From an uncultured Acidobacteriota bacterium (GTDB lineage: Bacteria; Acidobacteriota; Thermoanaerobaculia; Gp7-AA8): 64,000 nt of DNA. Below, in pieces: positions 2 to 54,432 of the stretch. The stretch's first letter is position 1. Each line of letters starts with the position of its first letter. A program made the position numbers and the translations under genes. The DNA is taken from positions 448,001-512,000 of the forward strand of contig CAVUKB010000005.1 of NCBI GenBank assembly GCA_963741955.1, given 5' to 3'. The notes under the pieces were generated by a model. It did not search any database. It had not been told where the DNA came from and saw only the letters and a program-made list of their open reading frames with translations.

Positions 2-616
2 GACGAACGATTCACGGCCGGAGAAGTCCGGGTTCTGCGGGAGCTCGACGGGACGCGTCCGATCGAGGAGGTGATCCGGGAGAGCGGTCTCGCGAGCGAC
101 GAGGCGGCCGCAATCGTTGCATCGATGGTCCGCAGAGGATGGCTGATCTCCCGGCAGGGCTCGAAGATGAAGCTTCCCGCCGCACGACCTTCGGATTCCC
201 CCGCTCCTGATCGGGCGGGCGTTCCACGTCCCCCCACCGAGGAGATGCCGGCACCTGCGGGATCGGCCGGGCCCGCCGAACCGAGCTCACGGGCGCCATT
301 TCTCGCCTGTTTCACGCTCGACAATACCGCGAGCACGTCGTTCCCTCTCTTCGACGAGAGCTGCACGATCGGACGGAGCTCCAGGAATACGATCCAGCTC
401 GATGACCCGAGCGTCTCCTCTTCGCATGCCCGCATCACGGCCACCGCCGATGGGCATCTCCTCGAGGACCTCGGGTCGAGCAACGGGACGTTCGTCAACG
501 GCCGGAAGATCAGGACGGCGTCGCTGCGCGACAAGGACCGCATCCGGATGGGCGCGGTCTACATGGTCTACATGATTCCCGAAGTCCATCGACCCGAGAG
601 CGAGCCTCGCCCATGA
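2..616 (+). CDS. FHA-domain protein, 5'-truncated by window edge
   Basis: Frame is open from position 2. C-terminal FHA motifs IGRS, VSSSHA, DLGSSNGTFVNG. Stop overlaps the next start (ATGA). Confidence 0.85.
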   Translation, partial: DERFTAGEVRVLRELDGTRPIEEVIRESGLASDEAAAIVASMVRRGWLISRQGSKMKLPAARPSDSPAPDRAGVPRPPTEEMPAPAGSAGPAEPSSRAPFLACFTLDNTASTSFPLFDESCTIGRSSRNTIQLDDPSVSSSHARITATADGHLLEDLGSSNGTFVNGRKIRTASLRDKDRIRMGAVYMVYMIPEVHRPESEPRP

Positions 617-3015
617 CGGAGCTCGATCTCATCATCGTCGGCTCCGGACCCGCAGGATTGAGCGCTGCGTCTCACGCCGCGAGCAACGCTCTTCGCTACG
701 TGGTCCTCGAGCGAGCTCCACACATCGCCGACACCATCCAGTGCTATCAGGCGCGCAAGTACGTGATGGCCGAGCCGATGGTCATCCCCGGGCGCGGCGA
801 TCTCCCGTTCGAGGCGGGCTCGCGCGAGTCGATCCTCGACGCATGGAGTGTCCACTGTCGCGATCGCACGCTCCACATCGAGTTCGGAAAGGAAGTTCAG
901 TCGATCGAGCGCGGCTCGTCCGGATTCACGGTCCGCACGAAGGACGGCGGAAGCTGGGCGGCCCCGAACGTGATCCTCGGCGTCGGCACGCAGGGATCTC
1001 TGCGGAAGCCGAACGTCCCGGGCGAAGATCTCCCCCACGTTTTCTATCGACTGGCCGACCCGTCCGATTACAGCGATCAGGATCTCGTCGTGGTCGGTGC
1101 AGGCGATTCCGCGCTCGAGATCGCACTCGCGCTCGCCGACGAGAACCGCGTCAGCCTGGTCGTCCGCTCGTCCGAGATCGTCCGGGCGAAGGAGAGCCTC
1201 ACCCGCGAGGCACTGAGTCGCGAAGCGAGCGGACGGATGACGATCTACTTCAGCGCGACTCTGCACAACATCGAGCCGGGATTCACCGATCTCGACGTTC
1301 GCGGAGAGATCGTCCGTGTTCCCGCACAGGCTCTCTTTCTCAAGCTCGGAGCGGTCGCACCACGGAAGTTTTTCGAGTCGTGTGGCATCGAGTACAGCGG
1401 GAAAGATCGCGACGCCATCCCTCTCCTCTCGGAGCACTACGAGACGAGCGTTCCGGGCCTCTATCTGATCGGCGCGGCAAGCGGACGCGATCTGATCAAA
1501 CTCGGGATGAATCAGGGATGGGAAGTCGTCGAGCACATCCTCGGGCACGAGGTCGAACCCGCCGACGAAGCGGTGCTGCGGGAGAGAGTTCCCTTTCTGG
1601 AAGGAACCGTCCACCAGAGGATCGGACAGCTCAGAGAAAAGATTCCGCTATTCGCGGCCGCCGAGGTCGAGCAGATCCGCGAGATGCTGCTCGCGACGGA
1701 GTTGCGGGAGTTCACGAACGGGCAGACCGTCATCCGGCAGAACGATTACACGAACGAGTTCCTGGTGATCGCGAGCGGCCGGGTCGAGGTCCTGGTCCGG
1801 AGCGAGGAAGGCGTGGAGAGCCGGGTCGCCGAGCTGACCGCGGGGAACTTCTTCGGCGAGATGAGTCTCATCTCGGGACGTCGCCGGAGTGCGACGGTGA
1901 ATGTGGTCGGCCCGGCGAAGATCTTCGCCATTCCGCGAAAAGCCATGCTGAAGCTGATCCGCACTTCGCCCGCAGTGCGCGATCTGGTCGATCGCGCATT
2001 CCTGATCCGGGCGATTCAGGGCTACCTCTTCCCGAATGTCTCCACCGCACGGCTGGGAGAACTGGTCGGACGTGCCGAGCTCCTCTCGCTCCCGAAGGGT
2101 CACGCGGTGTTCTACGAGGGCGCCGAAGGAGACGCGTTCTACCTCATCCGGAATGGAATGGTGAAGATCGCCCGCAAGTCGGGTGATCGGGAGCTCGTTC
2201 TCTCCTATCTCGTCGCAGGCAACTTCTTCGGAGAAACGGCACTCCTTTCGAACCAGCCGCGGACTGCGACCGTCACCACGATCTTTCCCTCCGACCTGAT
2301 TCGCCTCAGCCGCGACGATTTCCAGTCGTTCCTCGCGGCCAATCCTCAGTTCCGCGCCGACCCGATGAAGAAGCTCGAGGAGCGACGGATCGGCGCTCTC
2401 GTCGCCGATGCGACACCGGGAGCGGGGAACGTTCTGAGCGATCTGATTCGCGAAGAAGTGGTGATGGGGACGGACACCCTGATCATCGACGAGCATCTCT
2501 GCATCCGCTGCAGCAACTGCGTCCGCGCGTGCGAGGGCGTTCACGATGACGGTCAATCGCGGCTCTCGCTCACCGGCATTCGTCTGTACAACGTCCTCGC
2601 ACCGAACTCCTGCTGGCAGTGCGAGAACCCTCTCTGCATGCTCGACTGCCCGCCGGATGCGATCGCGCGCGACCCGCGAGGAGAGGTCTACATCCGGAGC
2701 AACTGCATCGGATGCGGAAACTGCGAGTCGAATTGTCCCTACGGCAACATCTTCATGATTCACCCCAAACCGAAGTGGGATCCATTCGGCTGGGTCAAGT
2801 CACTCTTCGCCCGCGCTGCGGGAAGATCGGCCGACGGCAACGGCGGCGAGCACGGCATCGAGCGGACTCTCGCCGTGAAGTGCGATCTCTGTCGCGACCT
2901 CGGCAGCGGACCGGCATGCGTGCGGAGCTGTCCCACCGGTGCCGCGCTGCGTCTCACGCCGCAGGAGTATCGCAGCACGCTGGAGGAGATCGTGATCACC
3001 AGAGGAGATCGCTGA
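613..3015 (+). CDS. FAD/NAD(P)H oxidoreductase (TrxB-like) fused to two cNMP-binding domains and a DmsB-like 4x[4Fe-4S] domain
   Basis: GSGPAG and GAGDSA dinucleotide motifs. Two phosphate-binding cassettes (FFGEMSL..RRSATV, FFGETAL..PRTATV). Four Cys clusters: CIRCSNCVRAC, CWQC..CMLDCP, CIGCGNCESNCP, CDLC..CVRSCP. Confidence 0.9.
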   Translation: MTELDLIIVGSGPAGLSAASHAASNALRYVVLERAPHIADTIQCYQARKYVMAEPMVIPGRGDLPFEAGSRESILDAWSVHCRDRTLHIEFGKEVQSIERGSSGFTVRTKDGGSWAAPNVILGVGTQGSLRKPNVPGEDLPHVFYRLADPSDYSDQDLVVVGAGDSALEIALALADENRVSLVVRSSEIVRAKESLTREALSREASGRMTIYFSATLHNIEPGFTDLDVRGEIVRVPAQALFLKLGAVAPRKFFESCGIEYSGKDRDAIPLLSEHYETSVPGLYLIGAASGRDLIKLGMNQGWEVVEHILGHEVEPADEAVLRERVPFLEGTVHQRIGQLREKIPLFAAAEVEQIREMLLATELREFTNGQTVIRQNDYTNEFLVIASGRVEVLVRSEEGVESRVAELTAGNFFGEMSLISGRRRSATVNVVGPAKIFAIPRKAMLKLIRTSPAVRDLVDRAFLIRAIQGYLFPNVSTARLGELVGRAELLSLPKGHAVFYEGAEGDAFYLIRNGMVKIARKSGDRELVLSYLVAGNFFGETALLSNQPRTATVTTIFPSDLIRLSRDDFQSFLAANPQFRADPMKKLEERRIGALVADATPGAGNVLSDLIREEVVMGTDTLIIDEHLCIRCSNCVRACEGVHDDGQSRLSLTGIRLYNVLAPNSCWQCENPLCMLDCPPDAIARDPRGEVYIRSNCIGCGNCESNCPYGNIFMIHPKPKWDPFGWVKSLFARAAGRSADGNGGEHGIERTLAVKCDLCRDLGSGPACVRSCPTGAALRLTPQEYRSTLEEIVITRGDR

Positions 3016-3016
3016 G

Positions 3017-3856
3017 GTGCCGGTCCGGAGACATGCAGGCCGCTGGCAGCTGATCTCGGCGCTTCTTCTCGCCGCACTGCTCGGCTCATACGTCTGGTAC
3101 GAGCAGCGCGAGCCGTTCACCCATGGCGGATCGACGATGGGTCTGATCTACGGAATCGTGGCGCTCGCGCTGATGGGCCTCCTTCTCTGGTTCGGCATCC
3201 GGAAGCGCTCCTACCGAAGCCGCTTCGGCACGCTCGAGGAGTGGCTGCAGTCGCACATCTATCTCGGCCTCTTCACGTTTGCGGTGGTGATCGCGCACAC
3301 CGGATTCCAGTTCCGCGATCGGATGGCGATCGCGCTCCTGATCGTGGTCACTCTGGTGATCGCCAGCGGAATCCTCGGCGCGATTCTCTACAAGACGGTG
3401 CCGCGTCTGCTCACCGAGGTCGACTCGAATCTTCCTGCGGACGCGATGTCGGAAGAGATGAACCAGCTGACGCGATCGATGTCGCGGGCCGCATCGGGCA
3501 AGTCGGCCCCGTTCCAGCGCATTTACAAACGGCTGGTGCAGGAAGCAATCCCTCCTCCTCTCGCGGGATGGCGTCTCCTGCTCCGTTCTTCGAACCGACG
3601 GAATCCCACCACTCGTCCGGACGACTGGTCGTCATTCCTGGGGATGGTTCCGGAAGACGAACAGGCGGAGCTGCGACAGCTTCTGGTGCTCTCACGGCAG
3701 CAGAAGGAACTGCAACTGCGCCTGGTTGCACAGCAGAAGTACCGTAACCTGCTCGATTTCTGGCTCTACATGCACCTCCCTCTTTCCATCGCCATGATCC
3801 TCCTGATCATCGCGCATCTGTGGGGCGTGTTCTATTACGGCAAAATCCAGTTCTGA
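3017..3856 (+). CDS. Integral membrane protein, ferric-reductase-like (putative di-heme b)
   Basis: About five hydrophobic helices, with paired His in two of them (SHIYLG...IAH; MHLPL...IAH). Confidence 0.75.
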   Translation: MPVRRHAGRWQLISALLLAALLGSYVWYEQREPFTHGGSTMGLIYGIVALALMGLLLWFGIRKRSYRSRFGTLEEWLQSHIYLGLFTFAVVIAHTGFQFRDRMAIALLIVVTLVIASGILGAILYKTVPRLLTEVDSNLPADAMSEEMNQLTRSMSRAASGKSAPFQRIYKRLVQEAIPPPLAGWRLLLRSSNRRNPTTRPDDWSSFLGMVPEDEQAELRQLLVLSRQQKELQLRLVAQQKYRNLLDFWLYMHLPLSIAMILLIIAHLWGVFYYGKIQF

Positions 3857-3865
3857 GGAATCGGC

Positions 3866-6301
3866 GTGTCCTTTCTGCTTCAGAAGATCGACCGGCCCAG
3901 AGTCACTCTGGTCGAGGTGAAGTCGCCCCGATTGACGATCGGGCGAGGCACGGGTGCGGACCTTCGATCCGAAAACGCCGCGGTGGCGCTCGAGCACGCG
4001 GTCGTCGAACTGAGGAAGGATGCCGGATACGAGATCTTCGACCGGGGGAGCATCACCGGGACGTACGTGAACGGGCGTCCCATCGAGAGCCGGCTCCTCG
4101 CGGCAGGCGATCGGATCGAGATCGGCGACCTGGTGATGGACGTCCAGGTTGCGGCGGCGGATCGTCCCCTCTTCCTCCGCGTCGAGAAAACGCGGGAAGA
4201 GAACGAAGCTCCGCTTCAGACCGGCGCGGCGGACGAGCGTCCCGTCTTCCTCACCGGAGCGCGGGTCGGAGCGCCTCGGATTGACTTCTCCCGCGCCTAC
4301 GCACTGCGCCAGGGCTTTCTGTCGAAAGGTGGAATGGTCTTCTCCCTGATGGCCCTCACGGCGATTCTCGTTGCGGCGGCGATCATCGGTGCGAAGGGCC
4401 TCGCCTACCAGCCCGGGCCGATCTCCGTCGCGCACGCGACGGCGACCCGACCCGATGGCGAGCGCGTCATCGGCGAACACGAGTGCAACGCGTGTCACGT
4501 TCCCTTCGGAGGAGCGAGCAACCACAAGTGCGGCGAGTGCCACGAGCAGTCGTTCCACCAGGCGAGAGAAGCGAAGGTCGGCCCGTGCATCGACTGTCAC
4601 GCAGAGCATCGCGACGTCCCGAATCTCGCGATGGTCCAGGCACAGCAGTGCGTTCGATGTCATCGGAATCTCGAGGGGAGCTCCATCACCGCGAAACGAA
4701 CCATCACCGCGTTCGAGACCGACCATCCCGAATTCACGATCCGGCTGGCGAGCGGAAAGAACGAGGCGGTCAACACCGCGACGGCTCGTACCGCGGATGC
4801 GATTCCACTGAAGTTCAACCACCAGTGCCACCTTCAGGGAAAGTGCAATCTCACTCCGCCCACTGCGAGCGACCCGAGACGGGAGAAGGTCGAGCTTCAC
4901 TGTGTCTCCTGCCACACTTTCGATCCGCAGACCGGAGCGGCCCAGCCGGTCCGGTACGAGACCGCATGCTCGAAATGTCATCCGCTCACGTTCGACAATC
5001 GCTTTCCGCCCGTCCCCCATGGTCTCTCGCTCGAGACCGTCGCCGGAGTGATCGCGAACACGTACGCCGGGAACGAAGATCTGCTCACCAGATCGCCGTC
5101 CGAGATCGAAGGAATCTTCGCCCGGAGGGAACGACGCACCCTCGACACGTCGAGTATCGTCGTTCGAAACGCCCAACGCGTGATGCAGACCCGTTGCGCC
5201 CACTGCCACGTGATGGAGAAAGACGGACGCAACGTCGTTCCGGTGAAAGAAAGAGCGGTGTGGTTCCCGGGAATGCGCCGCTTCAACCACTCCGTCCATA
5301 TGGCGGAGACCCTGAAACTCTCGTGTGTGGACTGCCATCACGGAATCGGATCGAGCAGGAAGGCATCCGATCTCTCTCTTCCGTCGATCAACAGCTGCAA
5401 AGGATGCCATCGCGCCAGCGCAACATTCGCGAACGCAGGTCTCGGCACGTGCACGCGCTGCCACTACTACCATGAAGCGACCAGGAAGCTCGGCCCCGGA
5501 TGGACGGCACGTGCCAGCCTGGTCTCGACGAAACTCTCCAAACCAGTCATCCCGAACAAGGGATCGAACGACAAGCAGAAGAAGGGGTGGGACTTGATCC
5601 TGGCATTCGTCTGGCCGATGCTCGCCATCGGCGGAATCATCATCCTCGTGTTCCTTGCGGTCGTCGGAGTGGCGGTCTTCTTTGCCGCACGCCGCGACCG
5701 GCGTGCAGCCGGCGAAGCGCTGGCGGGAGTCGGTGCGGCGACGGGGCCGATTCAGAAACGGACTCCCTCCCCGGCGGCGCCATCTCCCCCACTTTCCTCA
5801 CCTTCGACGCCCTCTCCGGCCGCATCCTCGCCAGCCGCGCCCTCTCCGGCCGCACCCTCGCCGGCCACATCCTCTCCGGCGCCACCCTCGGCTGAGCCGG
5901 CGGTGCCGAAGGATGCGACGCCTTCCGTGCCCGAACCGACGATCGCGGTTCCTCTTCCTCAACCCGAGCCGCCTGCGAAGGACGGCAGCACGGTCATGAT
6001 CCAGTGGCACGGATCGCTGATCGGAACCGCCGGAAAGCTCGAAGGAAAACGCATTCCGGTGACCAGCGACGGGTTCTACATCGGCCGAGACAAGGCGGCC
6101 GCGACGCTGGTGATCGATGACGGACGCGTCTCCCGCCGTCATTTGTGGATCGGCGTGGAGGACGGCGAGGTCGTCGTCGTGGACCAGGGCTCCACGAACG
6201 GCACTTTCGTCAACGGAGAGCGCGTGACGCGGCGGGTTCTTGCCGCAGGTGATATCATTACCATCTCCGACAATGTTGCATCTCTGAAGTACGAAGTCTG
6301 A
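3866..6301 (+). CDS. FHA - TM - decaheme cytochrome c - TM - Pro-rich linker - FHA protein
   Basis: 10 CxxCH motifs between two hydrophobic segments. FHA motifs at both ends (IGRG..SITGTYVNG; IGRD..SRRH..STNGTFVNG). Confidence 0.88.
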   Translation: MSFLLQKIDRPRVTLVEVKSPRLTIGRGTGADLRSENAAVALEHAVVELRKDAGYEIFDRGSITGTYVNGRPIESRLLAAGDRIEIGDLVMDVQVAAADRPLFLRVEKTREENEAPLQTGAADERPVFLTGARVGAPRIDFSRAYALRQGFLSKGGMVFSLMALTAILVAAAIIGAKGLAYQPGPISVAHATATRPDGERVIGEHECNACHVPFGGASNHKCGECHEQSFHQAREAKVGPCIDCHAEHRDVPNLAMVQAQQCVRCHRNLEGSSITAKRTITAFETDHPEFTIRLASGKNEAVNTATARTADAIPLKFNHQCHLQGKCNLTPPTASDPRREKVELHCVSCHTFDPQTGAAQPVRYETACSKCHPLTFDNRFPPVPHGLSLETVAGVIANTYAGNEDLLTRSPSEIEGIFARRERRTLDTSSIVVRNAQRVMQTRCAHCHVMEKDGRNVVPVKERAVWFPGMRRFNHSVHMAETLKLSCVDCHHGIGSSRKASDLSLPSINSCKGCHRASATFANAGLGTCTRCHYYHEATRKLGPGWTARASLVSTKLSKPVIPNKGSNDKQKKGWDLILAFVWPMLAIGGIIILVFLAVVGVAVFFAARRDRRAAGEALAGVGAATGPIQKRTPSPAAPSPPLSSPSTPSPAASSPAAPSPAAPSPATSSPAPPSAEPAVPKDATPSVPEPTIAVPLPQPEPPAKDGSTVMIQWHGSLIGTAGKLEGKRIPVTSDGFYIGRDKAAATLVIDDGRVSRRHLWIGVEDGEVVVVDQGSTNGTFVNGERVTRRVLAAGDIITISDNVASLKYEV

Positions 6302-6345
6302 CAACGTCTCGGCTTTGCCGCCGGACGGGCGTAGAGGGGAAAGGT

Positions 6346-8139
6346 GTGTCCTCGAAAATGACGAATGCAGGAATCCGTCGATCTCGAGTCCCCAGGGTCC
6401 TCATCCCGATCGTCGTCTTGGCGCTCCTCGGCGTCGGCATTCCGGCAGCCGCCGGAGAACGGGGACGCGGGGTCAGGACTCCATCATCGGTCCGTTTCAC
6501 CACCTCGCCTGATTGCGGCGGTTCGGCCGACGGCTCTCCCTGTCTCGAAGCCAGCGGAGAATTCGCACCTCTTCAGACCGACGAGGTGGAGACCCTCGCC
6601 CGCAATGCCGCGGCGGCTCTATCCGATCCGCACATGACCATCGCCGTCGTCGACCGCGCCGGGCGGGTGCTCGCGCTGGCGCGCAAGCCGGAAGCGGATC
6701 CGGCCAACGACGATCTGGCGGTCGGCCTCGCGCGCACCGCCGCATTCTTCAGTCACGACATGGCCCCGCTCTCCTCGAGGACGGTGCGATTCATCAGCGG
6801 AGTGCACTTTCCACCGGGAGTCCGGGATGCCCCCACCGCGCCGCTCTACGGGATCGAGAACACCAACCGCGGATGCGATCTCAACGTGACGTTCAACCCC
6901 GGAAAATGCGTCCCTCGGGCGACTTCGCTCAACGCTCTCCCGTGCAACGCATTCGACGCGCGCGGTTGCGGCACCGGTCCGGTGACCGGAAAGGTGCAGC
7001 CGTACGATTCTCATGACGGCGGAAAGCATCCGAGCTGGCTCGGACTCGAAGGGCCGGGCAACCCGAAAGGACTCCCGGTGAACGCGGGTGGCATCCCGAT
7101 CTACAGAGTGAGTGACGTGCGCGTGACCGGAGGATCGCTGGAGAACGGCACCGCGAATGTCCACGCCGAGGGCCCGGGTCATCTCGTCGGGGGAATTGGT
7201 GTGGCCGGCGTCCCATCGTCACAGGCCGAATTCGCCGCCTTCTCGAGCGTCGCTCTCAGCAGCAGTCATCTCTTCCCCGCGCCTTCGTTCCCGCTGCCTT
7301 CGCCGGGACGCGTCTTCATAGGGGGGGTCCGCGTTCCGTTCGTCGAACAGGGCATCCGGCCGACCGGCACTGAGGCCGGTTCCGCCGTCGACGCGACGTT
7401 CATCGTCGGACCGCAGACGGGAGGATGCGTCGCGAACCGCTATCTGGTCGGTCCCGCGGCCGGTTCCGCACTCTCCCGCGACGAAGTCGACCGGATCATC
7501 CACCAGGCATTCGATGCGGCGGAGCGAACCCGCGCCGCGATCCGCCTGCCGCTCGGCAGCTATGCACGGATGGTGTTCGCGGTCTCCGATCTCGACGGAT
7601 CGATCCTCGCGCTCTACCGGATGCCGGATGCGACAGTCTTCTCGATCGACGTCGCGGTGGCGAAATCGCGCAACGTGATCTACTTCAGCAGCGCCGACGT
7701 CTCTGCCGATCTCCCCGGCCTTCCCTCCGGAACCGCGGTCTCGAACCGGACCATCAGCTTCGGAGCTCAACCGCTCTTCCCCGCCGGTATCGACGGCACG
7801 ACTCCCGGTCCGTTCTTCGGACTCTTTCAGCACGATCTCGGCAACGTCTGCTCCCAGGGGACGCAGCTCGCGAATGCGAATCAGAACGGAGTGGTCTTCT
7901 TCCCCGGGAGCATCCCGCTCTACCGCGACGGCCATCTGGTGGGAGGGCTCGGCGTGAGCGGCGACGGCGTGGAGCAGGACGACTACGTTTCCTATCACGG
8001 CGCGGTCGGATTCCATCCGGCGATGTCGATCTGGTCGGATCAGCACGAGATCCGCGGCGTCCGCATTCCATTCCTCAAGTTTCCCCGGCATCCGGAGGAC
8101 GTGACCGAACAGACGAAGGAGACATTCGATGCACCGTGA
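6346..8139 (+). CDS. Secreted tandem GlcG/HbpS-like heme-binding protein
   Basis: Signal peptide. Two copies of the GlcG-type pattern (IAVVDRAG..GGIGVAG; FAVSDLDG..AVAKSR..GSIPLYRDGHLVGGLGVSG). Confidence 0.75.
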   Translation: MSSKMTNAGIRRSRVPRVLIPIVVLALLGVGIPAAAGERGRGVRTPSSVRFTTSPDCGGSADGSPCLEASGEFAPLQTDEVETLARNAAAALSDPHMTIAVVDRAGRVLALARKPEADPANDDLAVGLARTAAFFSHDMAPLSSRTVRFISGVHFPPGVRDAPTAPLYGIENTNRGCDLNVTFNPGKCVPRATSLNALPCNAFDARGCGTGPVTGKVQPYDSHDGGKHPSWLGLEGPGNPKGLPVNAGGIPIYRVSDVRVTGGSLENGTANVHAEGPGHLVGGIGVAGVPSSQAEFAAFSSVALSSSHLFPAPSFPLPSPGRVFIGGVRVPFVEQGIRPTGTEAGSAVDATFIVGPQTGGCVANRYLVGPAAGSALSRDEVDRIIHQAFDAAERTRAAIRLPLGSYARMVFAVSDLDGSILALYRMPDATVFSIDVAVAKSRNVIYFSSADVSADLPGLPSGTAVSNRTISFGAQPLFPAGIDGTTPGPFFGLFQHDLGNVCSQGTQLANANQNGVVFFPGSIPLYRDGHLVGGLGVSGDGVEQDDYVSYHGAVGFHPAMSIWSDQHEIRGVRIPFLKFPRHPEDVTEQTKETFDAP

Positions 8140-10183
8140 CCGTCGCTTCTCCGGTCGCGGATCATCTCTGTTCGCGATCGCTGCGCTGTTCCTTCTCCTG
8201 GCGCCGTTCTGCCGGTCGTCTGCAGCAGAGCCTCCGACCATCACCATCGACGGCGGGACGCTCATTTCGACGTCCTCGCTCCCGGTCGTCATATCAGGAA
8301 CGGCCTCGCCACCCGACGCGCTCGTTCAGGTCACGATCCGGGCCCGAACGATCTCGACTGTCGTTCGCGACGGACGCTGGCGCGTCGAATGGCCGGAACC
8401 GATTCCGGTCGGGACACACACGGTCGAAGCGGCGCTCGTCGACCGGTACCACACACTCGCCACCGCGACCTCGCTGTTGAAGATGACCGTGACGGCACGG
8501 CTCGCGAGAAAACCGCTGGACGCGGCGCAACCGAAGGAGACCACGGTCCGGCCGGCGCTTCGACCTGAAGACTACCAGGCGTTCCCTGACCGCTGGCGGA
8601 TCACTCCTCCCACCGACTACGACCTTCTGGTTCATCCGCGGTCGAAACTCGATCCGTACAACCAGAACATCCTCAAAGGGGACAAGCCGATCATCGGGCA
8701 GGAGATCTTCCTCGACCTCACCGGTATCTCCGACACGCTGGTGGAAGGGCGCAAGGTGCCCACCGGATCGACGGTCAGCGCGCGCAACCCGGGAAGCATC
8801 GACTTCTTCGGGGAGGGCGACCAGGCGTCGTTCGCAGAGAACGTTCTCCTCTCTGCCGATCTGTTCCGCGGTCAGACTGCATTCCGTCCCGCCGACTGGC
8901 GCGCTCGCCTCACGCTCGTCGGCAACTTCAATCACGTTTCCGTCCGCGAGAACGCCGTGGTGAACCCGGACGTCCGCCGCGGCACGTCACGAGATTCCGG
9001 CTACCTCGGAGTGCAGGAAGCCTTCTTCGAGAAGAAGATCGCGGATCTTTCGCCGAACTTCGATTTCGTCTCGATCCGCGCCGGCGTTCAACCGTTCGTC
9101 AGCGATTTTCGCGGATTCGTCTTCGATGACTCGAATCTCGGCGTCCGCCTCTTCGGCAACGCCCGATCGAACCGGTATCAGTACAACCTCGCCTGGTTCG
9201 ACCGCCTGGAGAAGGACACCAACAGCGGTCTGAATGTCATCGACAAGCTGCGCAAGCAACAGCTCCTCATCGCGAATCTCTACCGGGAGGACTTCCTGGT
9301 TCCCGGTTACACGGTCGAGGCGAGCGCTCATTACCTGAGGGATCGGGGACGCATCGCGTACGACAGCAACGGCTTCCTCGTCCGTCCCGATCCGATCGGC
9401 GATTTTTCTCCCCACCAGATCACCGCGACGTATCTCGGATTCGCCGGATTCGGAAGGCTCGGACGGATCAATGTCGATCACGCGCTCTACTACGTCTTCG
9501 GGAAGGACAGCCACAATCCGATCGCCGGGGCAGACCCGATCGGCGGCGGAGTCGGTCCCGATGGCGCCGCCGCCGGACGCGAGAGCGTCGACATTTCCGC
9601 GGAAATGGCGGCCGTCGAGCTGTCGGTGGATCGCGACTGGTACCGGCCGCGAATCGGATACTTTTACGCGAGCGGGGATCACGACGGCTTCGACCGGCAT
9701 GCGAACGGATTCGCGGCGATCTTCGCGAACCCGAACTTCGCGGGCGGGGGATTCAGCTTCTGGAACCGTCTCGGACTCCCTCTCCCCGGTACCGGCGTCG
9801 CGCTCCTCCACCGCGGAAGTTTCCTCCCCGATCTCAACAGCAGCAAGACTGAAGGTCAGCCGAACTTCGTCAATCCGGGCCTCCATCTCGCGACAGCGGG
9901 TGTCGACGTCGATCTCACCACGAAGCTCGTGCTCCTCCTCACCACCAACTATCTCCGGTTCGATCAGACTGACGTGCTGCAGGGCGTCCTCTTCCAGGAC
10001 GCGATCGACAGAGAGATCGGGTGGGACCTCTCGATCGGAGCGCGTTACCGGCCGTTCCTGAACAACAACGTGATGCTGCTGATCGGGACCGCGGCATTCG
10101 TTCCGGGAAAGGGATTCGAACAGATCTACGACAGGAAAGACACGCTCTACCAGCTTTTCACCGACCTCACGGTGAAATTCTGA
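8129..10183 (+). CDS. Outer-membrane beta-barrel protein with N-terminal Ig-like domain
   Basis: Signal peptide, amphipathic beta-strand pattern, C-terminal Phe (LTVKF). Confidence 0.7.
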   Translation: MHRDRRFSGRGSSLFAIAALFLLLAPFCRSSAAEPPTITIDGGTLISTSSLPVVISGTASPPDALVQVTIRARTISTVVRDGRWRVEWPEPIPVGTHTVEAALVDRYHTLATATSLLKMTVTARLARKPLDAAQPKETTVRPALRPEDYQAFPDRWRITPPTDYDLLVHPRSKLDPYNQNILKGDKPIIGQEIFLDLTGISDTLVEGRKVPTGSTVSARNPGSIDFFGEGDQASFAENVLLSADLFRGQTAFRPADWRARLTLVGNFNHVSVRENAVVNPDVRRGTSRDSGYLGVQEAFFEKKIADLSPNFDFVSIRAGVQPFVSDFRGFVFDDSNLGVRLFGNARSNRYQYNLAWFDRLEKDTNSGLNVIDKLRKQQLLIANLYREDFLVPGYTVEASAHYLRDRGRIAYDSNGFLVRPDPIGDFSPHQITATYLGFAGFGRLGRINVDHALYYVFGKDSHNPIAGADPIGGGVGPDGAAAGRESVDISAEMAAVELSVDRDWYRPRIGYFYASGDHDGFDRHANGFAAIFANPNFAGGGFSFWNRLGLPLPGTGVALLHRGSFLPDLNSSKTEGQPNFVNPGLHLATAGVDVDLTTKLVLLLTTNYLRFDQTDVLQGVLFQDAIDREIGWDLSIGARYRPFLNNNVMLLIGTAAFVPGKGFEQIYDRKDTLYQLFTDLTVKF

Positions 10184-10223
10184 GCGCCGACGAATCGAAG
10201 ATCACGGAAGACCACCGAAGACG

Positions 10224-13200
10224 ATGAGCAGACCGATGCGACGTTCGATACGACTTGTGGCCAGCCTCACGTTGATCGCGGGAGCGGTGCTGGTGATCGC
10301 GGAAGCTCCGCTCGCCGGCGATCCCACCCCCGAGAACGCCCTTCTCCGACAGTCGGCCGCAGATGCCGCTCACAAGAGCCGCGGTTGCATCAGCTGCCAT
10401 CACGGGATCGAGCCGATGCATTCTTCCCCTGCAGTGAGGCTCGGATGCACGGACTGCCACGGAGGCGATGCGTCCGCGATCTTCGTTCCCGGCAACGACG
10501 CGAAAGAGGTCGAGCTTCGCGCACACGTCCAACCCGTTCACCCCGAGCACTGGAGCCGCAACGGTCACCGATCCTCCGCCAATCCGGAGCGCTCTTACAC
10601 CTGGCTCAACGAGGAAACGCCCGAGTTCATCCGCTTCATCAATCCGGGCGATCTTCGCGTCGCGCCGGAGACCTGCGGAGCGTGTCACCCGAGCGAAGTG
10701 GTGCGCGTCCCTCGCAGCACCATGGCCACCAGTGCCACGTTCTGGGCCGCGGCCGCGTATGCGAACGGCATCCTCGATCTGAAGTACGGTGTGCTCGGCG
10801 AGAACTACACGCGCGATGGGCAACCTGGCGCGATCATTCCGAAAGCGAATCCGCAACAGCCTGATCCCGCGATGGGAAGCGTCCCTGCGCTCTACCCGCT
10901 TCCGCGATGGGAGCTCACCCAGCCGGGCGAGTACTTCCGCGCGTTCGAGCGCGGCGGCCGCTTGCAACCGACTACTCCTCCGGAGATCGGGAATCCGAAC
11001 CTCGAGGCCGAGCCCGGACGACCCGACATCCGCCTCAGCTCACGTGGCCGCGGGACCGGACTCCGGATCAGCCCCGCACTGATCAATCTCCACAAGACGC
11101 GCCTGAACGATCCGCATCTCTTTTTCCTCGGGACCAACGACCATCCCGGCGACTACCGTTCGAGCGGCTGCAGCGGATGCCATGTCGTTTATGCGAACGA
11201 CCGTGACCCGCTCCACTCCGGACCGTGGGCGGCGTATGGCAACACGGGGCTGTCCGCAACGAAAGACCCCACCATTCCTCACGACGAGAAGGGGCACCCG
11301 ATCGTCCACCGGCTCACCCGATCGATCCCCACCAGCCAGTGCATGTCCTGCCACATGCACCAGCCGAACTCTTTCCTCAACACATACCTCGGATACACCA
11401 TGTGGGACTACGAATCCGACGCCGATCTCCTCTTTCCGAAGGAGCAGCGGTATCCGACCGAGGAGGAGAAGCGAGCCAGTCTCGACCGGGATCCGGAAGG
11501 TGCTGCGGTGCGGGGCCTGTGGAGCAACGGGAAGTTCCTGGAGAACGTCCGTGACCTCAACGCAAAGGCGAAGCACACGCAATTCGCCGATTACCACGGA
11601 CACGGATGGATCTTCCAGGCGGTGTACCGCCGTGACCGGAAGGGACGGCTGCTCGACAAGGAAGGAAAGGTCGTCCCGTTCGACGATCCGCAGAAGTTCC
11701 AGAAGGCGGTCCATCTCGAAGACATCCACCTCGAGAAGGGAATGCACTGCGTCGATTGCCATTTCGACGTCGATTCTCACGGCAACGGGATGATCCACAC
11801 CGACTACGCCGCATCGATCGAGATCGAGTGTCAGGACTGCCATGGCACGATCGAGCGCACCTCGACGTTGCGGACGTCCGGCCCCGCCGCACCGGAGGGA
11901 GGAACGGATCTCTCTCTCGGCACGACGCCGTTCGGCCAGCGGCGGTTCGCGTGGCGTGGAGGAAGCCTCTACCAGCGGTCGATGCTCACACCCGGTCTGG
12001 AGTGGCGCGTCATTCAGGTCAAGGACAGCATCGATCCGGCTTCTCCCGACTACGACGAGCGCGCGGCGAGGGCGAAGACGATGCAACGCGACGGAACCAG
12101 CTGGGGCACGGCGGCCGGTCACGATCTCGCCCACCCCGAATCGGCGATGACCTGCGACAGCTGCCACTCGTCATGGATGACAAGCTGCTCCGGCTGTCAT
12201 CTGCCGCAGGAAGCGAACGTCCGCTCCCGGATGATCCGCTACGAGGGAAACACCACCCGCAACTACGCTTCGTACAATCCGGAGACCATCCGCACCGATG
12301 TCTTCATGCTCGGGATCAACGGAACGAACAAGGGACACCGCATCGCTCCGGTCCGCTCGTCCAGCGCGCTCGTTCTCAGCTCGACCAACGCGAGCCGCGA
12401 TCACATCTACATCCAGCAGCCGACCATTTCCGCTCCCGGGTTCAGCGGACAGGCGTTCAATCCTCACGTCCCTCACACCGTGCGCACCACCGAATCGAAG
12501 CAGTGCAGCGACTGCCATCTCTCGGAGGAGAACGACAACAACGCCTGGATGGCCCAGCTCCTCCTGCAGGGAACGGACTGGGTCAATCTCATCGGCCGTT
12601 ACGCGTGGGTCGCCGAAGAGAATGCAGGGCTCGAGGCGGTCGGAGTGACGGAGTGGGAAGAGCCGCAGGCGGTGATCGGATCGAGCCTCCAGTCGATCGT
12701 CTATCCCGACGACTACGCCGCGCATCAGAAGAGAAAGGGTGAGCTGGAGGTCGCACACCATCACCATGGCCATCAGGTGCGAAGCATCCAGCTTCGCGGC
12801 GAGTATCTCTACACCGCACAGGGAAGCGACGGATTGGTGGTGTACGACGTCGCCAACGTCGACAACAAGGACTTCTCCGAACGGATCGTCAGCGCACCGG
12901 TCTCGCCGCTGGGACAACGCACTTACGTCCGGACGAAGGACGCGACGTGCGTCGCACTTCCGACCACCATGCCGATGGCGCCGTCACGCAAGACGCCGCC
13001 ACTGAGTGGAGAGCAGAAGATCCACCCTATCTACCGCTATGCACTGATCGGAGATCGGGTGGAAGGAGTGGTGCTGGTCAACGTCGAGACGCTGACCGAC
13101 GGCGACCCGGAGAACAACTTCCTGAAGCGGGCGCTCACCTTCAACCCGGACGGTGCTCTCGATGGAACGACCGCGATCACCATCGCCGGCAACTACGCGT

Positions 13201-13922
13201 ACGTCGTCGGCGATCACGGATTGACGGTGCTCGACCTCGACGAGCCGCTCTCGCCGCGCATCGTCGCGAACGTCCCGGACATCGTGAAGGGCACCGGTGT
13301 CGACGTCCAGTTCCGCTACGCGTTCGTGACGGATCAGGACGGACTGAAAGTGGTCGACATCACGTTTCCGGAAAAGCCGGCGATCGTCGCACGACTCCCG
13401 ATCGAAGACGCTCACGGCGTGTACGTGGCCCGCACTTACGCCTACGTCGCAGGAGGCCGCAACGGAATGGTCATCGTCGACGTCGAGAACCCGGAGAGAC
13501 CGTTCGTCGACCAGACCTTCACCGGCGGCGTGCTGCGCGACACGCGCGACATCAAGATCGGATCGACCAACGCGAGTCTTTTCGCCTACGTCGCAGACGG
13601 GACGAACGGATTCCACGTCGTGCAGCTGACCTCGCCGGACCGTACACCAGGATACGAGGGATTCAGTCCTCGTCCGGCGCCCGTTCTGATCGCGAGCCGG
13701 AAGACCGAAGGCCCCGCAGTGGCTCTCTCGAGAGGCCTCGATCGCGACCGTGCGGTGGACGAGAGCGGCAATCAGGTCGCGGTCTTCAACCGGATCGGAG
13801 CGCGTCCGATGAATCTCCAGGAGATGCAGAGACTCTATCTGCGAGACGGAAAGATCTACCGGGTGAGTGACCGCCCGACGGCTCCCGAGAAGCACGACTC
13901 GCAACGGAGAAAAGAGCGATGA
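10224..13922 (+). CDS. Large decaheme cytochrome c with C-terminal LVIVD-repeat beta-propeller
   Basis: Signal peptide, 10 CxxCH motifs, repeated YAYV..GL.V.D units. Confidence 0.88.
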   Translation: MSRPMRRSIRLVASLTLIAGAVLVIAEAPLAGDPTPENALLRQSAADAAHKSRGCISCHHGIEPMHSSPAVRLGCTDCHGGDASAIFVPGNDAKEVELRAHVQPVHPEHWSRNGHRSSANPERSYTWLNEETPEFIRFINPGDLRVAPETCGACHPSEVVRVPRSTMATSATFWAAAAYANGILDLKYGVLGENYTRDGQPGAIIPKANPQQPDPAMGSVPALYPLPRWELTQPGEYFRAFERGGRLQPTTPPEIGNPNLEAEPGRPDIRLSSRGRGTGLRISPALINLHKTRLNDPHLFFLGTNDHPGDYRSSGCSGCHVVYANDRDPLHSGPWAAYGNTGLSATKDPTIPHDEKGHPIVHRLTRSIPTSQCMSCHMHQPNSFLNTYLGYTMWDYESDADLLFPKEQRYPTEEEKRASLDRDPEGAAVRGLWSNGKFLENVRDLNAKAKHTQFADYHGHGWIFQAVYRRDRKGRLLDKEGKVVPFDDPQKFQKAVHLEDIHLEKGMHCVDCHFDVDSHGNGMIHTDYAASIEIECQDCHGTIERTSTLRTSGPAAPEGGTDLSLGTTPFGQRRFAWRGGSLYQRSMLTPGLEWRVIQVKDSIDPASPDYDERAARAKTMQRDGTSWGTAAGHDLAHPESAMTCDSCHSSWMTSCSGCHLPQEANVRSRMIRYEGNTTRNYASYNPETIRTDVFMLGINGTNKGHRIAPVRSSSALVLSSTNASRDHIYIQQPTISAPGFSGQAFNPHVPHTVRTTESKQCSDCHLSEENDNNAWMAQLLLQGTDWVNLIGRYAWVAEENAGLEAVGVTEWEEPQAVIGSSLQSIVYPDDYAAHQKRKGELEVAHHHHGHQVRSIQLRGEYLYTAQGSDGLVVYDVANVDNKDFSERIVSAPVSPLGQRTYVRTKDATCVALPTTMPMAPSRKTPPLSGEQKIHPIYRYALIGDRVEGVVLVNVETLTDGDPENNFLKRALTFNPDGALDGTTAITIAGNYAYVVGDHGLTVLDLDEPLSPRIVANVPDIVKGTGVDVQFRYAFVTDQDGLKVVDITFPEKPAIVARLPIEDAHGVYVARTYAYVAGGRNGMVIVDVENPERPFVDQTFTGGVLRDTRDIKIGSTNASLFAYVADGTNGFHVVQLTSPDRTPGYEGFSPRPAPVLIASRKTEGPAVALSRGLDRDRAVDESGNQVAVFNRIGARPMNLQEMQRLYLRDGKIYRVSDRPTAPEKHDSQRRKER

Positions 13923-15310
13923 ACATCAGCCGCAACCCACACCGAGCTCCGGGCAGGCGGGCTCAATCGATCTCGATCCCGGGTTGGTTCGCCCTGATCC
14001 TTCTCCTCGGATCCGGATCCGTGCCGGCCGCTCTCGCACAGATGACACCCGCAGCCGAGACTCCGGTCCTGAAGGAAGGGATGTACGTCGGGCCGGTCTC
14101 CTGCGCCGCGTCCGGATGCCACGGCAGTCCTGCACCGGTCGAGGGTGCGAAAGTGCTGATGAACGAGTACGACACCTGGCTCCACGCTCCTTCACCGACG
14201 CACGTACATGCGTGGGAAGTTCTTCTTCAGCCACTCTCCAGACGGATCGCGAAGAACCTCGGCCTCGAACAACCGCCCGAGAAATCGTCGGTCTGCATCG
14301 CCTGCCATTCGATGAACGTTCCGCAGAACCTGCAGGCCACGACCGGAGCGCTGGAGATCGCCGACGGCGTCTCGTGTGAAGGATGTCACGGGCCGGCCGG
14401 AGGATGGCTGGCCGGACACACCAGCGACGGGTGGTCGCACGCCGATTCCGTGGCGAAGGGAATGACCGATCTCAAGGACCTCCCGACCCGCGCTCGAACC
14501 TGTCTCGGCTGCCACATGGGCAACGACTCCAGGGAAGTCAACCACGACATGATCGCCTCCGGGCATCCGATCCTGAACTTCGAGCTCGACAACTTCTCGG
14601 GCAGTCCTCTCATGCCGAATCACTGGAAACCTGACCCCGCGCGGGACGGTGTGCCTGCGTGGGCCGTCGGACAAGTGGTTGCGCAACGCGAAGAAGCGGC
14701 CAACCTCGTCCGGCATGCCAACGGACCGCAGTGGCCCGAGTTCACGCACATGAGCTGCGCGAGTTGTCACCATCCCCTGAGGGAGGGAGAGTGGAGACAG
14801 GAGCGCGGATACCGCTACCGCCCCGGAATGCCTCTCCGGAGCCAGGCCCGATGGCTGGTGCTTCGTCACATCGTCGAAACCGCGGCCCCGCAGGAGTCCG
14901 CGCCGCTGACGGAAGAGATGGCGCAACTCTCCGACGCCGTCGGCCGGATGAAGGATCGAGCACGCATCGCGGAGCTCGCCGGTGCGGTGGAGGGCCGCCT
15001 CGATCGCGTTCTTCCGGCCGTGCAGGCGAAGAACTGGACGGACGCCGACGTCCGGAAGATGGTCGGCCTGATCGCCGGAGATGCCGATCGTTACGAGATC
15101 GCCGACCGGCAATCGGCCGAACAGGCCACCCTTGCCCTCATCTCTCTGGTCAGTCAACTCGATCGCTCCTCCCGCGGATCGATGTCGGGCACCGTCGACC
15201 AGCTCTATCAGCTCCTCCAGCGGCTCCGCTATCCCGACGAATACGACCGGAAGGAATTCGCCTCGACGCTACGTACGCTGCTGAAGCCTTCGACCGCGCC
15301 TGTGGGTTGA
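13919..15310 (+). CDS. Multiheme cytochrome c (c554-like N-domain plus helical C-domain)
   Basis: Signal peptide. YVGPVSC AASGCH (CX4CH) plus 4 CxxCH, including GVSCEGCHGP typical of c554-like domains. Confidence 0.85.
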   Translation: MNISRNPHRAPGRRAQSISIPGWFALILLLGSGSVPAALAQMTPAAETPVLKEGMYVGPVSCAASGCHGSPAPVEGAKVLMNEYDTWLHAPSPTHVHAWEVLLQPLSRRIAKNLGLEQPPEKSSVCIACHSMNVPQNLQATTGALEIADGVSCEGCHGPAGGWLAGHTSDGWSHADSVAKGMTDLKDLPTRARTCLGCHMGNDSREVNHDMIASGHPILNFELDNFSGSPLMPNHWKPDPARDGVPAWAVGQVVAQREEAANLVRHANGPQWPEFTHMSCASCHHPLREGEWRQERGYRYRPGMPLRSQARWLVLRHIVETAAPQESAPLTEEMAQLSDAVGRMKDRARIAELAGAVEGRLDRVLPAVQAKNWTDADVRKMVGLIAGDADRYEIADRQSAEQATLALISLVSQLDRSSRGSMSGTVDQLYQLLQRLRYPDEYDRKEFASTLRTLLKPSTAPVG

Positions 15311-53962: not shown

Positions 53963-54048
53963 GGAGCCACCTCGCATCGACGTTGGGGCATTTTCGTTTC
54001 GGGTTGTGCGGGCCATTGTAGCAGGTGTCTGTCTGCAGGGTGCCATCC

Positions 54049-54432
54049 GTGGGTTGGGCGTCCCGCCCGATGCGGAGCGGGGCCGTGGGTTGGGCGTCCC
54101 TCGCCCGATGCGATGCGGCGTCTGTGGGTTGGGCGTCCTCGCCCGATGCGATGCGGCGTCTGTGGGTTGGGCGTCCTCGCCCGATGCGATGCGGCGTCTG
54201 TGGGTTGGGCGTCCTCGCCCGATGCGATGCGGCGTCCCGCGCCGCATTGCCCGGCGCAAGCTACGACGATCCTTCCGAGAAGAGAGACACGAACTTACCT
54301 CCGCGCGAGAGGAACGATCACCGATCCGTTGACACCATCGCTCCCGGCACGATGCCGGGAGCCTCGCGCCCGGAGGCGCGACCCACCTTGGGGCGACCCA
54401 CCTTGGGGCGACCCACCGGAGGCGCGACCCAC
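54049..54432. repeat. Diverged family-A array (~38-bp tandem units plus one long unit)
   Basis: GTGGGTTGGGCGTCCTCGCCCGATGCGATGCGGCGTCT-type units, then GCAAGCTACGACGATCC..CCCGGCACGATGCCGGGAG..GCGCGACCCAC. Confidence 0.85.

Follow-up and report, generated by a model that had tools for sequence, protein, structure and literature searches.

Two gene clusters described in preprints come closest to the subject of this study, a set of eight genes (g1 to g8) at the start of a 64,000-nucleotide stretch of DNA from an uncultured Acidobacteriota bacterium (G000:C5:448001-512000; this whole stretch is called the window below). The ptdABCDEFG cluster of marine oxygen-deficient zones is known in silico and from metatranscripts, and its function is given as "completely unknown"; its products are a pentaheme cytochrome, a porin, a flavin adenine dinucleotide (FAD)/NAD(P) oxidoreductase, a tetraheme cytochrome, a protein with cyclic nucleotide (cNMP)-binding and 4Fe-4S modules, a ferric-reductase-like transmembrane (TM) protein, and a decaheme cytochrome, and the available parts of the preprint place it in Alpha- and Gammaproteobacteria, Nitrospirales, and Planctomycetes (bioRxiv 10.1101/2023.11.21.568154). 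In Ferrigenium straubiae, a protein with a cytoplasmic FHA domain, one TM helix, and a periplasmic nonaheme domain is encoded beside a cytoplasmic [4Fe-4S] protein and a 5-TM protein that lacks known motifs; the available sections of that preprint call FHA domains previously unreported with multiheme cytochromes and favour inward transfer to quinone (bioRxiv 10.64898/2026.01.22.701106).

The cluster in the window is a real, strongly conserved, and uncharacterised system. An earlier reading of the same DNA (the original prediction) proposed a continuous electron path from cytoplasmic NAD(P)H to the periplasm or cell surface, gated by cyclic nucleotides and threonine phosphorylation, for which no characterised example was known. 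The chain it proposed is plausible, and it is judged moderately probable that g2 to g8 form a signal-controlled outward chain that starts at NAD(P)H, ends at a cytochrome docked to the outer membrane, and acts on a small solute. NAD(P)H would reduce the FAD of g2, and the electrons would then move along four [4Fe-4S] clusters of the same protein, cross the inner membrane by way of two b-type hemes bound to the His pairs of g3, reach the decaheme domain of g4 in the periplasm, and continue through the pentaheme g8 and the decaheme g7. The last of these would sit on the periplasmic face of the g6 pore with a conserved loop in the lumen, where the most likely end reaction would be reduction of a small solute that reaches g7 through the pore; direct contact with an insoluble extracellular acceptor would be less likely. 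The cNMP domains of g2 and the cytoplasmic FHA part of g4 would gate the flow, such that NAD(P)H is drained only upon a signal. In the literature covered, which lacks most subscription journals, no solved system or characterised pathway was found to match the cluster; that part of the original prediction stands, with the qualification that the two preprints, in their available parts, describe related uncharacterised clusters.

Composition and conservation of the gene cluster

The eight co-oriented open reading frames (ORFs) are tightly packed on the + strand and fill window positions 2-15310; the junctions from g1 to g8 measure -4, +1, +9, +44, -11, +40, and -4 nt, with three pairs overlapping. 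Every domain named in the original prediction is borne out by the ORFs, by Pfam and NCBIfam, and, for the barrel, by an AlphaFold2 model, and the approximately 25 c-type hemes it counted correspond to 24 CXXCH sites and one CX4CH site, 25 in all. The features are as follows, with protein lengths in amino acids (aa).

g1: 2..616, + strand; 3' part of the gene (true start 370 nt upstream of the window, 328 aa); DUF4388 (PATAN-like) and FHA domains, cytoplasmic
g2: 613..3015, + strand; 800 aa; FAD/NAD(P)H domain, two cNMP-binding domains, and a 16-Cys ferredoxin domain, cytoplasmic
g3: 3017..3856, + strand; 279 aa; inner-membrane protein with about five TM helices and two His pairs
g4: 3866..6301, + strand; 811 aa; FHA domain, TM helix, ten CXXCH motifs, TM helix, Pro-rich linker, and FHA domain
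g5: 6346..8139, + strand; 597 aa; secreted tandem GlcG/HbpS-like protein (DUF336)
g6: 8129..10183, + strand; 684 aa; outer-membrane protein with signal peptide, Ig-like domain, linker, and beta-barrel
g7: 10224..13922, + strand; 1,232 aa; secreted decaheme protein with LVIVD beta-propeller
g7 loop, aa 252-265 (PPEIGNPNLEAEPG): 10977..11018, + strand; low confidence in the monomer model, predicted insert of the g6 barrel
g8: 13919..15310, + strand; 463 aa; secreted pentaheme protein (CAASGCH and four CXXCH), c554/c552-like

When one genome per species was scanned with g7, at least 594 relatives were found (582 of 599 in a second scan with the Limnobacter copy), and the best 80 loci, with g7 at 53-68% identity over its full length, were studied. 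These loci were picked by g7 similarity, so g7 is present in them by construction, and many are short contigs. The carriers belong to Acidobacteriota, Nitrospirota, Binatia, Bacteroidota, Ignavibacteriae/Chlorobi, Planctomycetota, Rokubacteria, Myxococcales, and Alpha-, Beta-, and Gammaproteobacteria. The g7 family comprises at least 7,999 protein clusters at 90% identity (7,999 of 8,000 scored candidates, E <= 1e-20), and all of the 120 best matches listed carry the source name "hypothetical protein." All-against-all clustering of the ORFs from the 80 loci and the region itself gives exactly seven recurrent families, g2 to g8; the remaining large ORF clusters are shadow ORFs in other frames of these genes. 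Across the 81 regions, g7 is found in 79, g6 in 75, g4 in 59, g5 in 57, g2 and g3 in 54 each, and g8 in 51.

Conservation of gene order was assessed in the 36 loci with at least 9.4 kb of sequence upstream and at least 4 kb downstream of g7. All seven genes are present in 24 of these complete loci, g2, g3, and g4 occur together in 33, and g6 adjoins g7 in all 36; the order of the window is the commonest (13 loci). The syntenic conservation that the original prediction depended on is therefore present across phyla for a seven-gene core, and g1 falls outside it: tblastn matches to g1 lie 5' of g2 only in L011, L012, and L015, and none was found in L009, L013, L027, or L082, each with at least 1.4 kb of upstream sequence, so that g1 is lineage-specific. 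The heme counts are also kept in the homologs (mostly ten in g4, ten in g7, and four plus one in g8) and are therefore not due to chance.

Within the phylum, g7 is patchy, occurring in 31 of 301 genomes and in four of the five genomes of its own family. A g3 profile matches 66 of the 301, namely all 31 genomes with g7 and 35 of the 270 without it, so the inner-membrane module is wider in distribution than the outer module; these counts include one unpublished genome (G049), and related genomes are non-independent samples. The cluster is carried by the named isolates Limnobacter alexandrii (LZ-4) and Silanimonas lenta (DSM 16282), and a Fontimonas sp. is a further cultured carrier. The Limnobacter g7 copies (L122, L124, L130) are 68-69% identical to copies from metagenome-assembled genomes (MAGs) of Vicinamibacteria/Acidobacteriota (compared with L066), a closeness equal to that with many proteobacterial copies, which suggests transfer between phyla as far as sequence comparison can indicate it. 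A g7 homolog 69% identical to the Limnobacter copy is found in L119, a contig labelled "MAG: Klebsiella pneumoniae," which looks doubtful as a name for a MAG with such content.

Cytoplasmic and inner-membrane proteins

Neither g1 nor g2 has a hydrophobic segment. The first 320 residues of g2 form a TrxR/YpdA-like FAD and NAD(P)H domain (Pyr_redox_3, 121 bits against a cut-off of 30); this region has no redox-active CxxC, and the protein stays below the equivalog cut-offs of TIGR04018 (128 against 339.9 bits) and the TrxR model TIGR01292 (69 against 343). Two cNMP_binding stretches follow at aa ~345-590 (146.7 bits, Pfam cut-off 27.5), with the phosphate-binding cassettes FGEM...RRSA and FGET...PRTA (both of the form FGE...R[ST]A), and in tandem they resemble the regulatory domains of PKA and PKG (E 1e-18 to 5e-24). 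The HycB-like ferredoxin domain at aa ~620-790 has 16 Cys that are nearly invariant in 48 sequences, which fits four [4Fe-4S] clusters. The cNMP domains are thereby placed between the flavin and ferredoxin modules.

In g3, the two His pairs lie on separate helices (H80 and H94 on one, H253 and H267 on another); all of 54 sequences have H80 and H94, and at least 90% have H253 and H267. These pairs would be the ligands of two b-type hemes, each of them close to one side of the membrane. From the positive-inside rule, the cytoplasmic face is expected to be close to H80 and H253 and the periplasmic face close to H94 and H267, which gives the layout of a two-heme transmembrane wire, as in the NADPH oxidases (NOX) and cytochrome b561; the His-pair spacing of NOX is that of g3. 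Among the 120 g3 relatives listed, 15 carry the Pfam label PF01794 (Ferric_reduct) and five carry PF01292 (cytochrome b561).

In g4, an FHA domain (aa 1-100), a TM segment (151-181), the decaheme domain (190-536), a second TM segment (574-611), a Pro-rich linker, and a second FHA domain (715-805) follow one another, an order that would place both FHA domains in the cytoplasm and the decaheme domain in the periplasm. The FHA family scores 107 bits in two stretches (76 bits in g1; Pfam cut-off 20.7 for both), and matches of g4 to PDB sequences are limited to the FHA domains. The decaheme domain has ten CXXCH motifs and nine further invariant His in 53 sequences. Two TM helices flank the heme domain in g4; in g5 to g8, the N-terminal signal is the sole hydrophobic segment.

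The connection between g2 and g3 is addressed by gene fusions. In two further genomes of the phylum, at L084 (249-2732, 827 aa) and L086 (4176-6638, 820 aa), two cNMP domains, the Fer4 domain, and the g3 membrane domain are joined in one ORF, followed by an FHA-multiheme gene; the flavoprotein is separate (Fer4 and Pyr_redox) and homologs of g6 and g7 adjoin. A third genome (L085) has the same fused arrangement by tblastn, and about 20 further matches to the g3 profile sit in open frames of at least 790 aa. Because the ferredoxin part of g2 and g3 are fused in L084 and L086, the former would be expected to dock on the latter, and the fusion is good evidence for such docking of the ferredoxin wire. 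Together with the c-type cytochromes, the cofactor sites would make up a coherent and conserved chain: FAD/NAD(P)H, four [4Fe-4S] clusters, two membrane hemes, and 25 c-type hemes. Bis-His ligation appears possible for nearly all hemes of g4, g7, and g8, given their nine, ten, and five further invariant His.

The outer-membrane barrel and the secreted proteins

The AlphaFold2 model of g6, built with 68 sequences, has a mean predicted local distance difference test (pLDDT) score of 86 and a confident barrel. It consists of an Ig-like domain (aa 37-119), a flexible or disordered linker, and a barrel (aa 193-683) of 18 long strands by DSSP, ending with a C-terminal Phe. No Pfam family matches at E <= 0.01 and no PDB sequence at E <= 1, and the structural search with Foldseek lists AlgE first (E 8.9e-18, TM-target 0.63-0.68), followed by OprD/Occ and other porins of 16-18 strands. 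With one Cys and no CXXCH, g6 is not a heme/barrel fusion of the Cyc2 type. The model points to an AlgE-like 18-strand pore and not to an MtrB-like sheath able to house hemes. AlgE also binds a periplasmic protein on its periplasmic face, its partner being AlgK, and likewise the predicted partner of g6 would dock from that side; here, however, no polysaccharide genes are nearby and the partner is a multiheme cytochrome. Within the literature covered, an alginate-export barrel paired with multiheme cytochromes was not found.

The most conserved gene of the cluster is g7, which has a decaheme region (aa 31-~790) with ten CXXCH motifs and ten further invariant His, and an LVIVD propeller (aa ~790-1175). 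Its model (residues 31-1230, 76 sequences) has a mean pLDDT of 87.7 and a predicted TM-score of 0.90; the C-terminal third is a seven-bladed propeller (VIA-align Z 22, root-mean-square deviation 2.1-2.3 over 268-276 residues). PDB sequences match g7 only at E ~0.08, to small c3 cytochromes, and the ESM Atlas matches are unnamed LVIVD-cytochrome clusters only. A decaheme-LVIVD protein was not found in the literature covered, and the LVIVD protein of a preprint on Tenderiales is a different, non-heme protein. Enzymes similar to hydrazine synthase or to cd1-type NirS were considered for g7 and rejected, since the likeness is that of a generic propeller (E ~4e-8, TM-score 0.19 on the query), as was membership of the ExtM family, to which g7 is only a distant relative (76.5 bits against an NCBIfam cut-off of 800).

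Residues 243-266 of g7 have a pLDDT below 50 in the monomer and are yet fairly conserved. This stretch was therefore named beforehand as the likely barrel insert, and the complex was then modelled from g6 residues 170-684 and g7 residues 31-500, with our own alignments, in three runs and with three controls. The interface score ipSAE is 0.65, 0.47, and 0.68 (median 0.65), against 0.00 for the best control; the mark applied to this score is reached by 58 of 80 solved complexes and by two of 110 mismatched pairs, rates that are approximate here, since the alignments were our own. Contacts agree between the runs to at least 32%, with a partner pLDDT of 70 or more. The confident contacts of g7 lie at aa 252-265 (PPEIGNPNLEAEPG), 178-191, and 224-246; on g6, contact is made by the turns on the periplasmic side, by residues that point inward from many strands, and, in a long external loop, by residues 534 and 536. 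The interface takes up 52 of 515 g6 residues and contains 13 of the 32 invariant positions of the modelled g6 range (about three expected by proportion). The interaction of barrel and cytochrome on which the original prediction relied is thus supported at the level of a model, in which g7 lies below the g6 pore, at its periplasmic end, and extends a loop without heme into the lumen.

The other secreted cytochrome of the chain, g8, has a CX4CH motif (CAASGCH), four CXXCH motifs, and five further invariant His; it matches cytochrome c552 (5ze8, E 1.4e-4), and it has, in addition, a C-terminal domain of unassigned fold. The signal peptides of g7 and g8 contain no Cys and are plain, without a lipobox.

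A barrel beside decaheme cytochromes, 25 c-type hemes, and a predicted interface that extends deep into the lumen recall the porin-cytochrome conduits (Pcc) such as MtrCAB, with the cytochrome-barrel contact here predicted in silico only. Electrons could then pass through g6 and g7, perhaps with g8, to insoluble Fe(III)/Mn(IV), humics, or partner cells, for respiration or assimilatory metal reduction. The variant clusters with the fusion also hold extra cytochromes with MtrC/MtrF-like domains (L086:1845-3083 and L084:6147-7310), and a similar role is suggested for ptd in the available part of that preprint (bioRxiv 10.1101/2023.11.21.568154). This reading is nevertheless considered unlikely. 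The modelled 18-strand g6 is smaller than the known cytochrome sheaths, and the g7 loop inserted in it is without a heme motif. MtrB, by comparison, is a 26-strand barrel that sheathes a decaheme. Of the cluster proteins, g8 alone is matched by the TIGR03508 model (MtrA/DmsE), with 24 bits where 192.2 are required, and g4 and g7 have no match; no MtrC/OmcA-type lipoprotein was seen (PF22113 scores 16.8 bits in g8 against 30), a lipobox is absent from g7 and g8, and the 80 loci show no conserved secretion genes near the cluster. The electron source also differs, being an NAD(P)H-dependent flavo-FeS protein and not the quinol pool. The named isolates are, in addition, bacteria that we take to be aerobes, which argues against a dedicated anaerobic respiration. 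Of the continuous path in the original prediction, the part as far as the periplasm is consistent with the conserved cofactor chain; passage to the cell surface is weakened, since the barrel appears AlgE-like and not a heme-housing sheath and the lipobox is absent.

The tandem GlcG protein g5 has two HbpS-like/GlcG stretches, and its nearest solved relative is EfgA (E 5.6e-11). A role as heme carrier was considered for g5 and rejected as the leading idea, with no invariant His or Cys in 54 sequences. For the same reason it is probably a ligand-binding or accessory subunit.

Signalling, direction, and relation to known systems

A cNMP_binding domain is present in all 48 g2 homologs, and an N-terminal FHA or YscD-like domain in 32-36 of 53 g4 homologs; the C-terminal second FHA of g4 is restricted to longer Acidobacteriota copies. 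Phosphothreonine-binding FHA domains have the canonical residues GR ... SxxH ... NG, and these are present in the FHA of g1 and in the C-terminal FHA of g4. The non-core genes that recur in the 80 loci are a PP2C phosphatase (10 loci, directly 3' of g8 in L045, L048, L049, L052, and L064, an arrangement of genomes of the Haliea type) and a CHASE2 adenylate/guanylate cyclase (8 loci, among them L009 and L082, which are close relatives, and those of three Limnobacter genomes); they share no loci, giving 18 in total. The link of the cluster to cNMP and phospho-signalling is thus supported by gene context. Gating, as originally predicted, would be in keeping with the family-wide cNMP and FHA domains and the recurring cyclase and phosphatase; of the co-occurrence with Ser/Thr kinases and cyclases that the prediction proposed to look for, that with cyclases is seen in 8 of the 80 loci.

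Signalling modules in such density (two cNMP, up to three FHA, and a DUF4388 domain) would also suit a redox-sensing device in place of a bulk electron pathway, in which the heme chain reports the periplasmic or external redox state to the cytoplasm and signalling partners are bound or let go there by the FHA and cNMP domains; a PP2C or cyclase beside the cluster in 18 of 80 loci and the membership of g5 in the family of the sensor proteins EfgA and HbpS agree with this. It is held to be very unlikely, as 25 c-type hemes, four Fe-S clusters, and an NAD(P)H flavoprotein exceed the needs of a sensor, the conservation of g7 (53-68% identity across phyla) suggests catalytic or structural constraint, and the neighbourhood has no conserved transcription factor or kinase in the 80 loci.

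Elsewhere in the host genome, a group on contig C7 (G000:C7:245000-254000) contains two Ser/Thr kinases (246051-246848 and 247465-248244), a PP2C (250934-251635), and a class III cyclase (253057-253599), which are candidates for trans-acting inputs to the cluster. In loci of the Bacteroidota/Ignavibacteria type (L022:10992-13295; also L024, L028, and L040), a flavoprotein combines Pyr_redox with two FHA domains and a 2Fe-2S domain, and a separate double-FHA protein lies 5' of it (L022:10006-10992), an alternative joining of FHA to the electron chain.

The outward direction is proposed because it would be thermodynamically easy and because the named isolates are presumed aerobic. The potential of NAD(P)H (about -320 mV) is lower than that of typical bis-His c-type hemes, and the membrane potential favours the exit of electrons. 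The opposite direction would have g7 and g8 oxidise a periplasmic or pore-delivered donor (Fe(II), a reduced S or N compound, or reduced humics) and pass the electrons by way of g4 and g3 to NAD(P)+ or another cytoplasmic acceptor. The layout of periplasmic multiheme c, membrane cytochrome b, and cytoplasmic Fe-S protein is that of the Tmc and Hmc complexes of sulfate reducers, and the carriers include Nitrospira, Limnobacter, and methanotroph MAGs. A trio of FHA-nonaheme, 5-TM, and [4Fe-4S] proteins is moreover expressed in the Fe(II) oxidiser Ferrigenium straubiae, for which inward transfer is proposed in the available text (bioRxiv 10.64898/2026.01.22.701106). Inward flow is rated unlikely: reduction of NAD(P)+ from c-type hemes would be uphill and opposed by the membrane potential, with no coupling module to drive it, no family with a quinone site was detected in g3 by Pfam, and the broad occurrence in heterotrophs speaks against a lithotrophic role.

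Several observations weigh against the outward, signal-controlled chain. The membrane protein g3 scores below the Pfam cut-offs of the di-heme families (PF01794, 20.6 against 28; PF01292, 25.9 against 30.1), and g8 is missing or on the opposite strand in one third of the complete loci; the order of g8 and g7 in the path is, besides, a guess. In searches with Foldseek and VIA-align, the whole 1,200-residue model of g7 was matched by its propeller only, the heme domain not being compared alone. As the g7 loop that enters the barrel carries no heme motif, the complex could be a gated solute channel or a mere anchor instead of an electron exit, and g5 is left without an assigned role. On the side of control, the N-terminal FHA of g4, the one that is family-wide, keeps GR, H, and NG and lacks the canonical Ser of the phosphothreonine pocket, no kinase recurs beside the cluster in the 80 loci, and the only class III cyclase and the nearest PP2C of the host genome are located away from it.

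Other genes flank the cluster. On the 5' side of g1 are a sulfatase, an amidohydrolase, and a DDE transposase, and on the 3' side of g8 are minus-strand ORFs without a Pfam family, a GntR regulator, and a second transposase; the unit is therefore taken to be g1 to g8. The G+C content at third codon positions (GC3) of the cluster ORFs is 0.76-0.79, the level of genuine genes in the host genome, which is 5.4 Mb in 16 contigs and 99% complete. The nearest relatives of the cluster genes are MAGs labelled Thermoanaerobaculia, phylum Acidobacteriota, and the full-length stretch is present in one sequencing run, a soil metagenome that may be its source. A scan for promoters and terminators was uninformative (no promoters, 1.4 expected; nine terminator-like sites, 9.8 expected). 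The transposases are of the DDE_5 type at L002:2486-3898 (- strand), about 4.1-5.5 kb upstream of the window, of the DDE_Tnp_1 type at window positions 19934-21253 (- strand), in a local G+C dip (0.57 against about 0.64), and of the IS91 type at 38893-40026. The cluster may lie in a mobile or rearranged region, a setting that fits its patchy spread across phyla. Other features of the window are two giant ORFs, one at 28573-36009 (+ strand, 2,478 aa) with Calx-beta domains and one at 49601-54259 (- strand, 1,552 aa) with leucine-rich repeats and an fn3 domain, and two ORFs with gene-like GC3 and no Pfam family at E <= 0.001, at 16405-18360 (- strand, 651 aa) and 22387-25590 (- strand, 1,067 aa).

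If the proposed chain is correct, many aerobic bacteria of soil, freshwater, and the sea would possess a regulated route for electrons from NAD(P)H to the envelope that is independent of the quinone pool; an electron-transfer chain would be under the direct influence of cyclic nucleotides and of FHA/PP2C signalling, and small AlgE-type barrels could be docking pores for large cytochromes. The question bears on which organisms reduce iron or form reactive oxygen or nitrogen species extracellularly in oxic and low-oxygen habitats, and the cultured carriers make the proposed chain testable.

Of the established systems, the NADPH oxidases, ferric reductases, and MsrQ share with the cluster, on the sequence reading of g3, a cytoplasmic NAD(P)H flavin that would feed two stacked b-type hemes held by two His pairs on two helices. 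They differ in that the flavin here resides in a separate protein of TrxR fold with four Fe-S clusters in between and that g3 is sub-threshold; the acceptor, unlike the O2 or molybdoenzyme of NOX and MsrQ, would be a chain of c-type hemes. A more specific form of the outward chain, rather improbable as a whole, would make the cluster a bacterial counterpart of NADPH oxidase, in which export of electrons from NAD(P)H is gated by second messengers and phosphorylation, proceeds along Fe-S clusters, two b-type hemes, and 25 c-type hemes, and arrives at a cytochrome that plugs an AlgE-like pore and hands the electrons to a small oxidant outside; this oxidant may be O2, with superoxide as the product, or nitrogen oxides, or Fe(III) or Mn(III) in chelated form. 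Such a machine would occur in hundreds of mostly aerobic species, and would provide the first multiheme conduit under direct cNMP/FHA control and a novel mode of coupling a cytochrome to an outer-membrane barrel. The Tmc and Hmc complexes, similar in layout, are made of other protein families and have no flavin/NAD(P)H module, signalling domains, or outer-membrane part.

The two preprint clusters remain the nearest. Compared by description only (the preprint names Ga0066848_100031354 as its PtdA query), six of the seven kinds of Ptd component occur among g2 to g8, the tetraheme not being found here, and the pentaheme proteins of both are related to cytochrome c552, which g8 matches in 5ze8. 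In contrast to ptd as described in the available part of the preprint (bioRxiv 10.1101/2023.11.21.568154), the flavoprotein and the cNMP-FeS protein form one polypeptide (g2) and the decaheme g4 bears one or more FHA domains; the tandem GlcG protein g5 and the 1,232-aa decaheme-LVIVD protein g7, conserved here, are not mentioned in that part. The FHA-nonaheme, 5-TM, and [4Fe-4S] proteins of Ferrigenium straubiae, likewise judged by description, match the trio g4, g3, and g2, with nine hemes in place of ten, and the available sections describe no barrel, GlcG, or LVIVD partner and no cNMP domain (bioRxiv 10.64898/2026.01.22.701106). Several features of the present cluster go unmentioned in what is available of both preprints: g7 with its decaheme and LVIVD parts, the tandem GlcG protein g5, a barrel of AlgE-like fold, the gene fusion, a loop modelled inside the pore, and neighbouring cyclase and PP2C genes.

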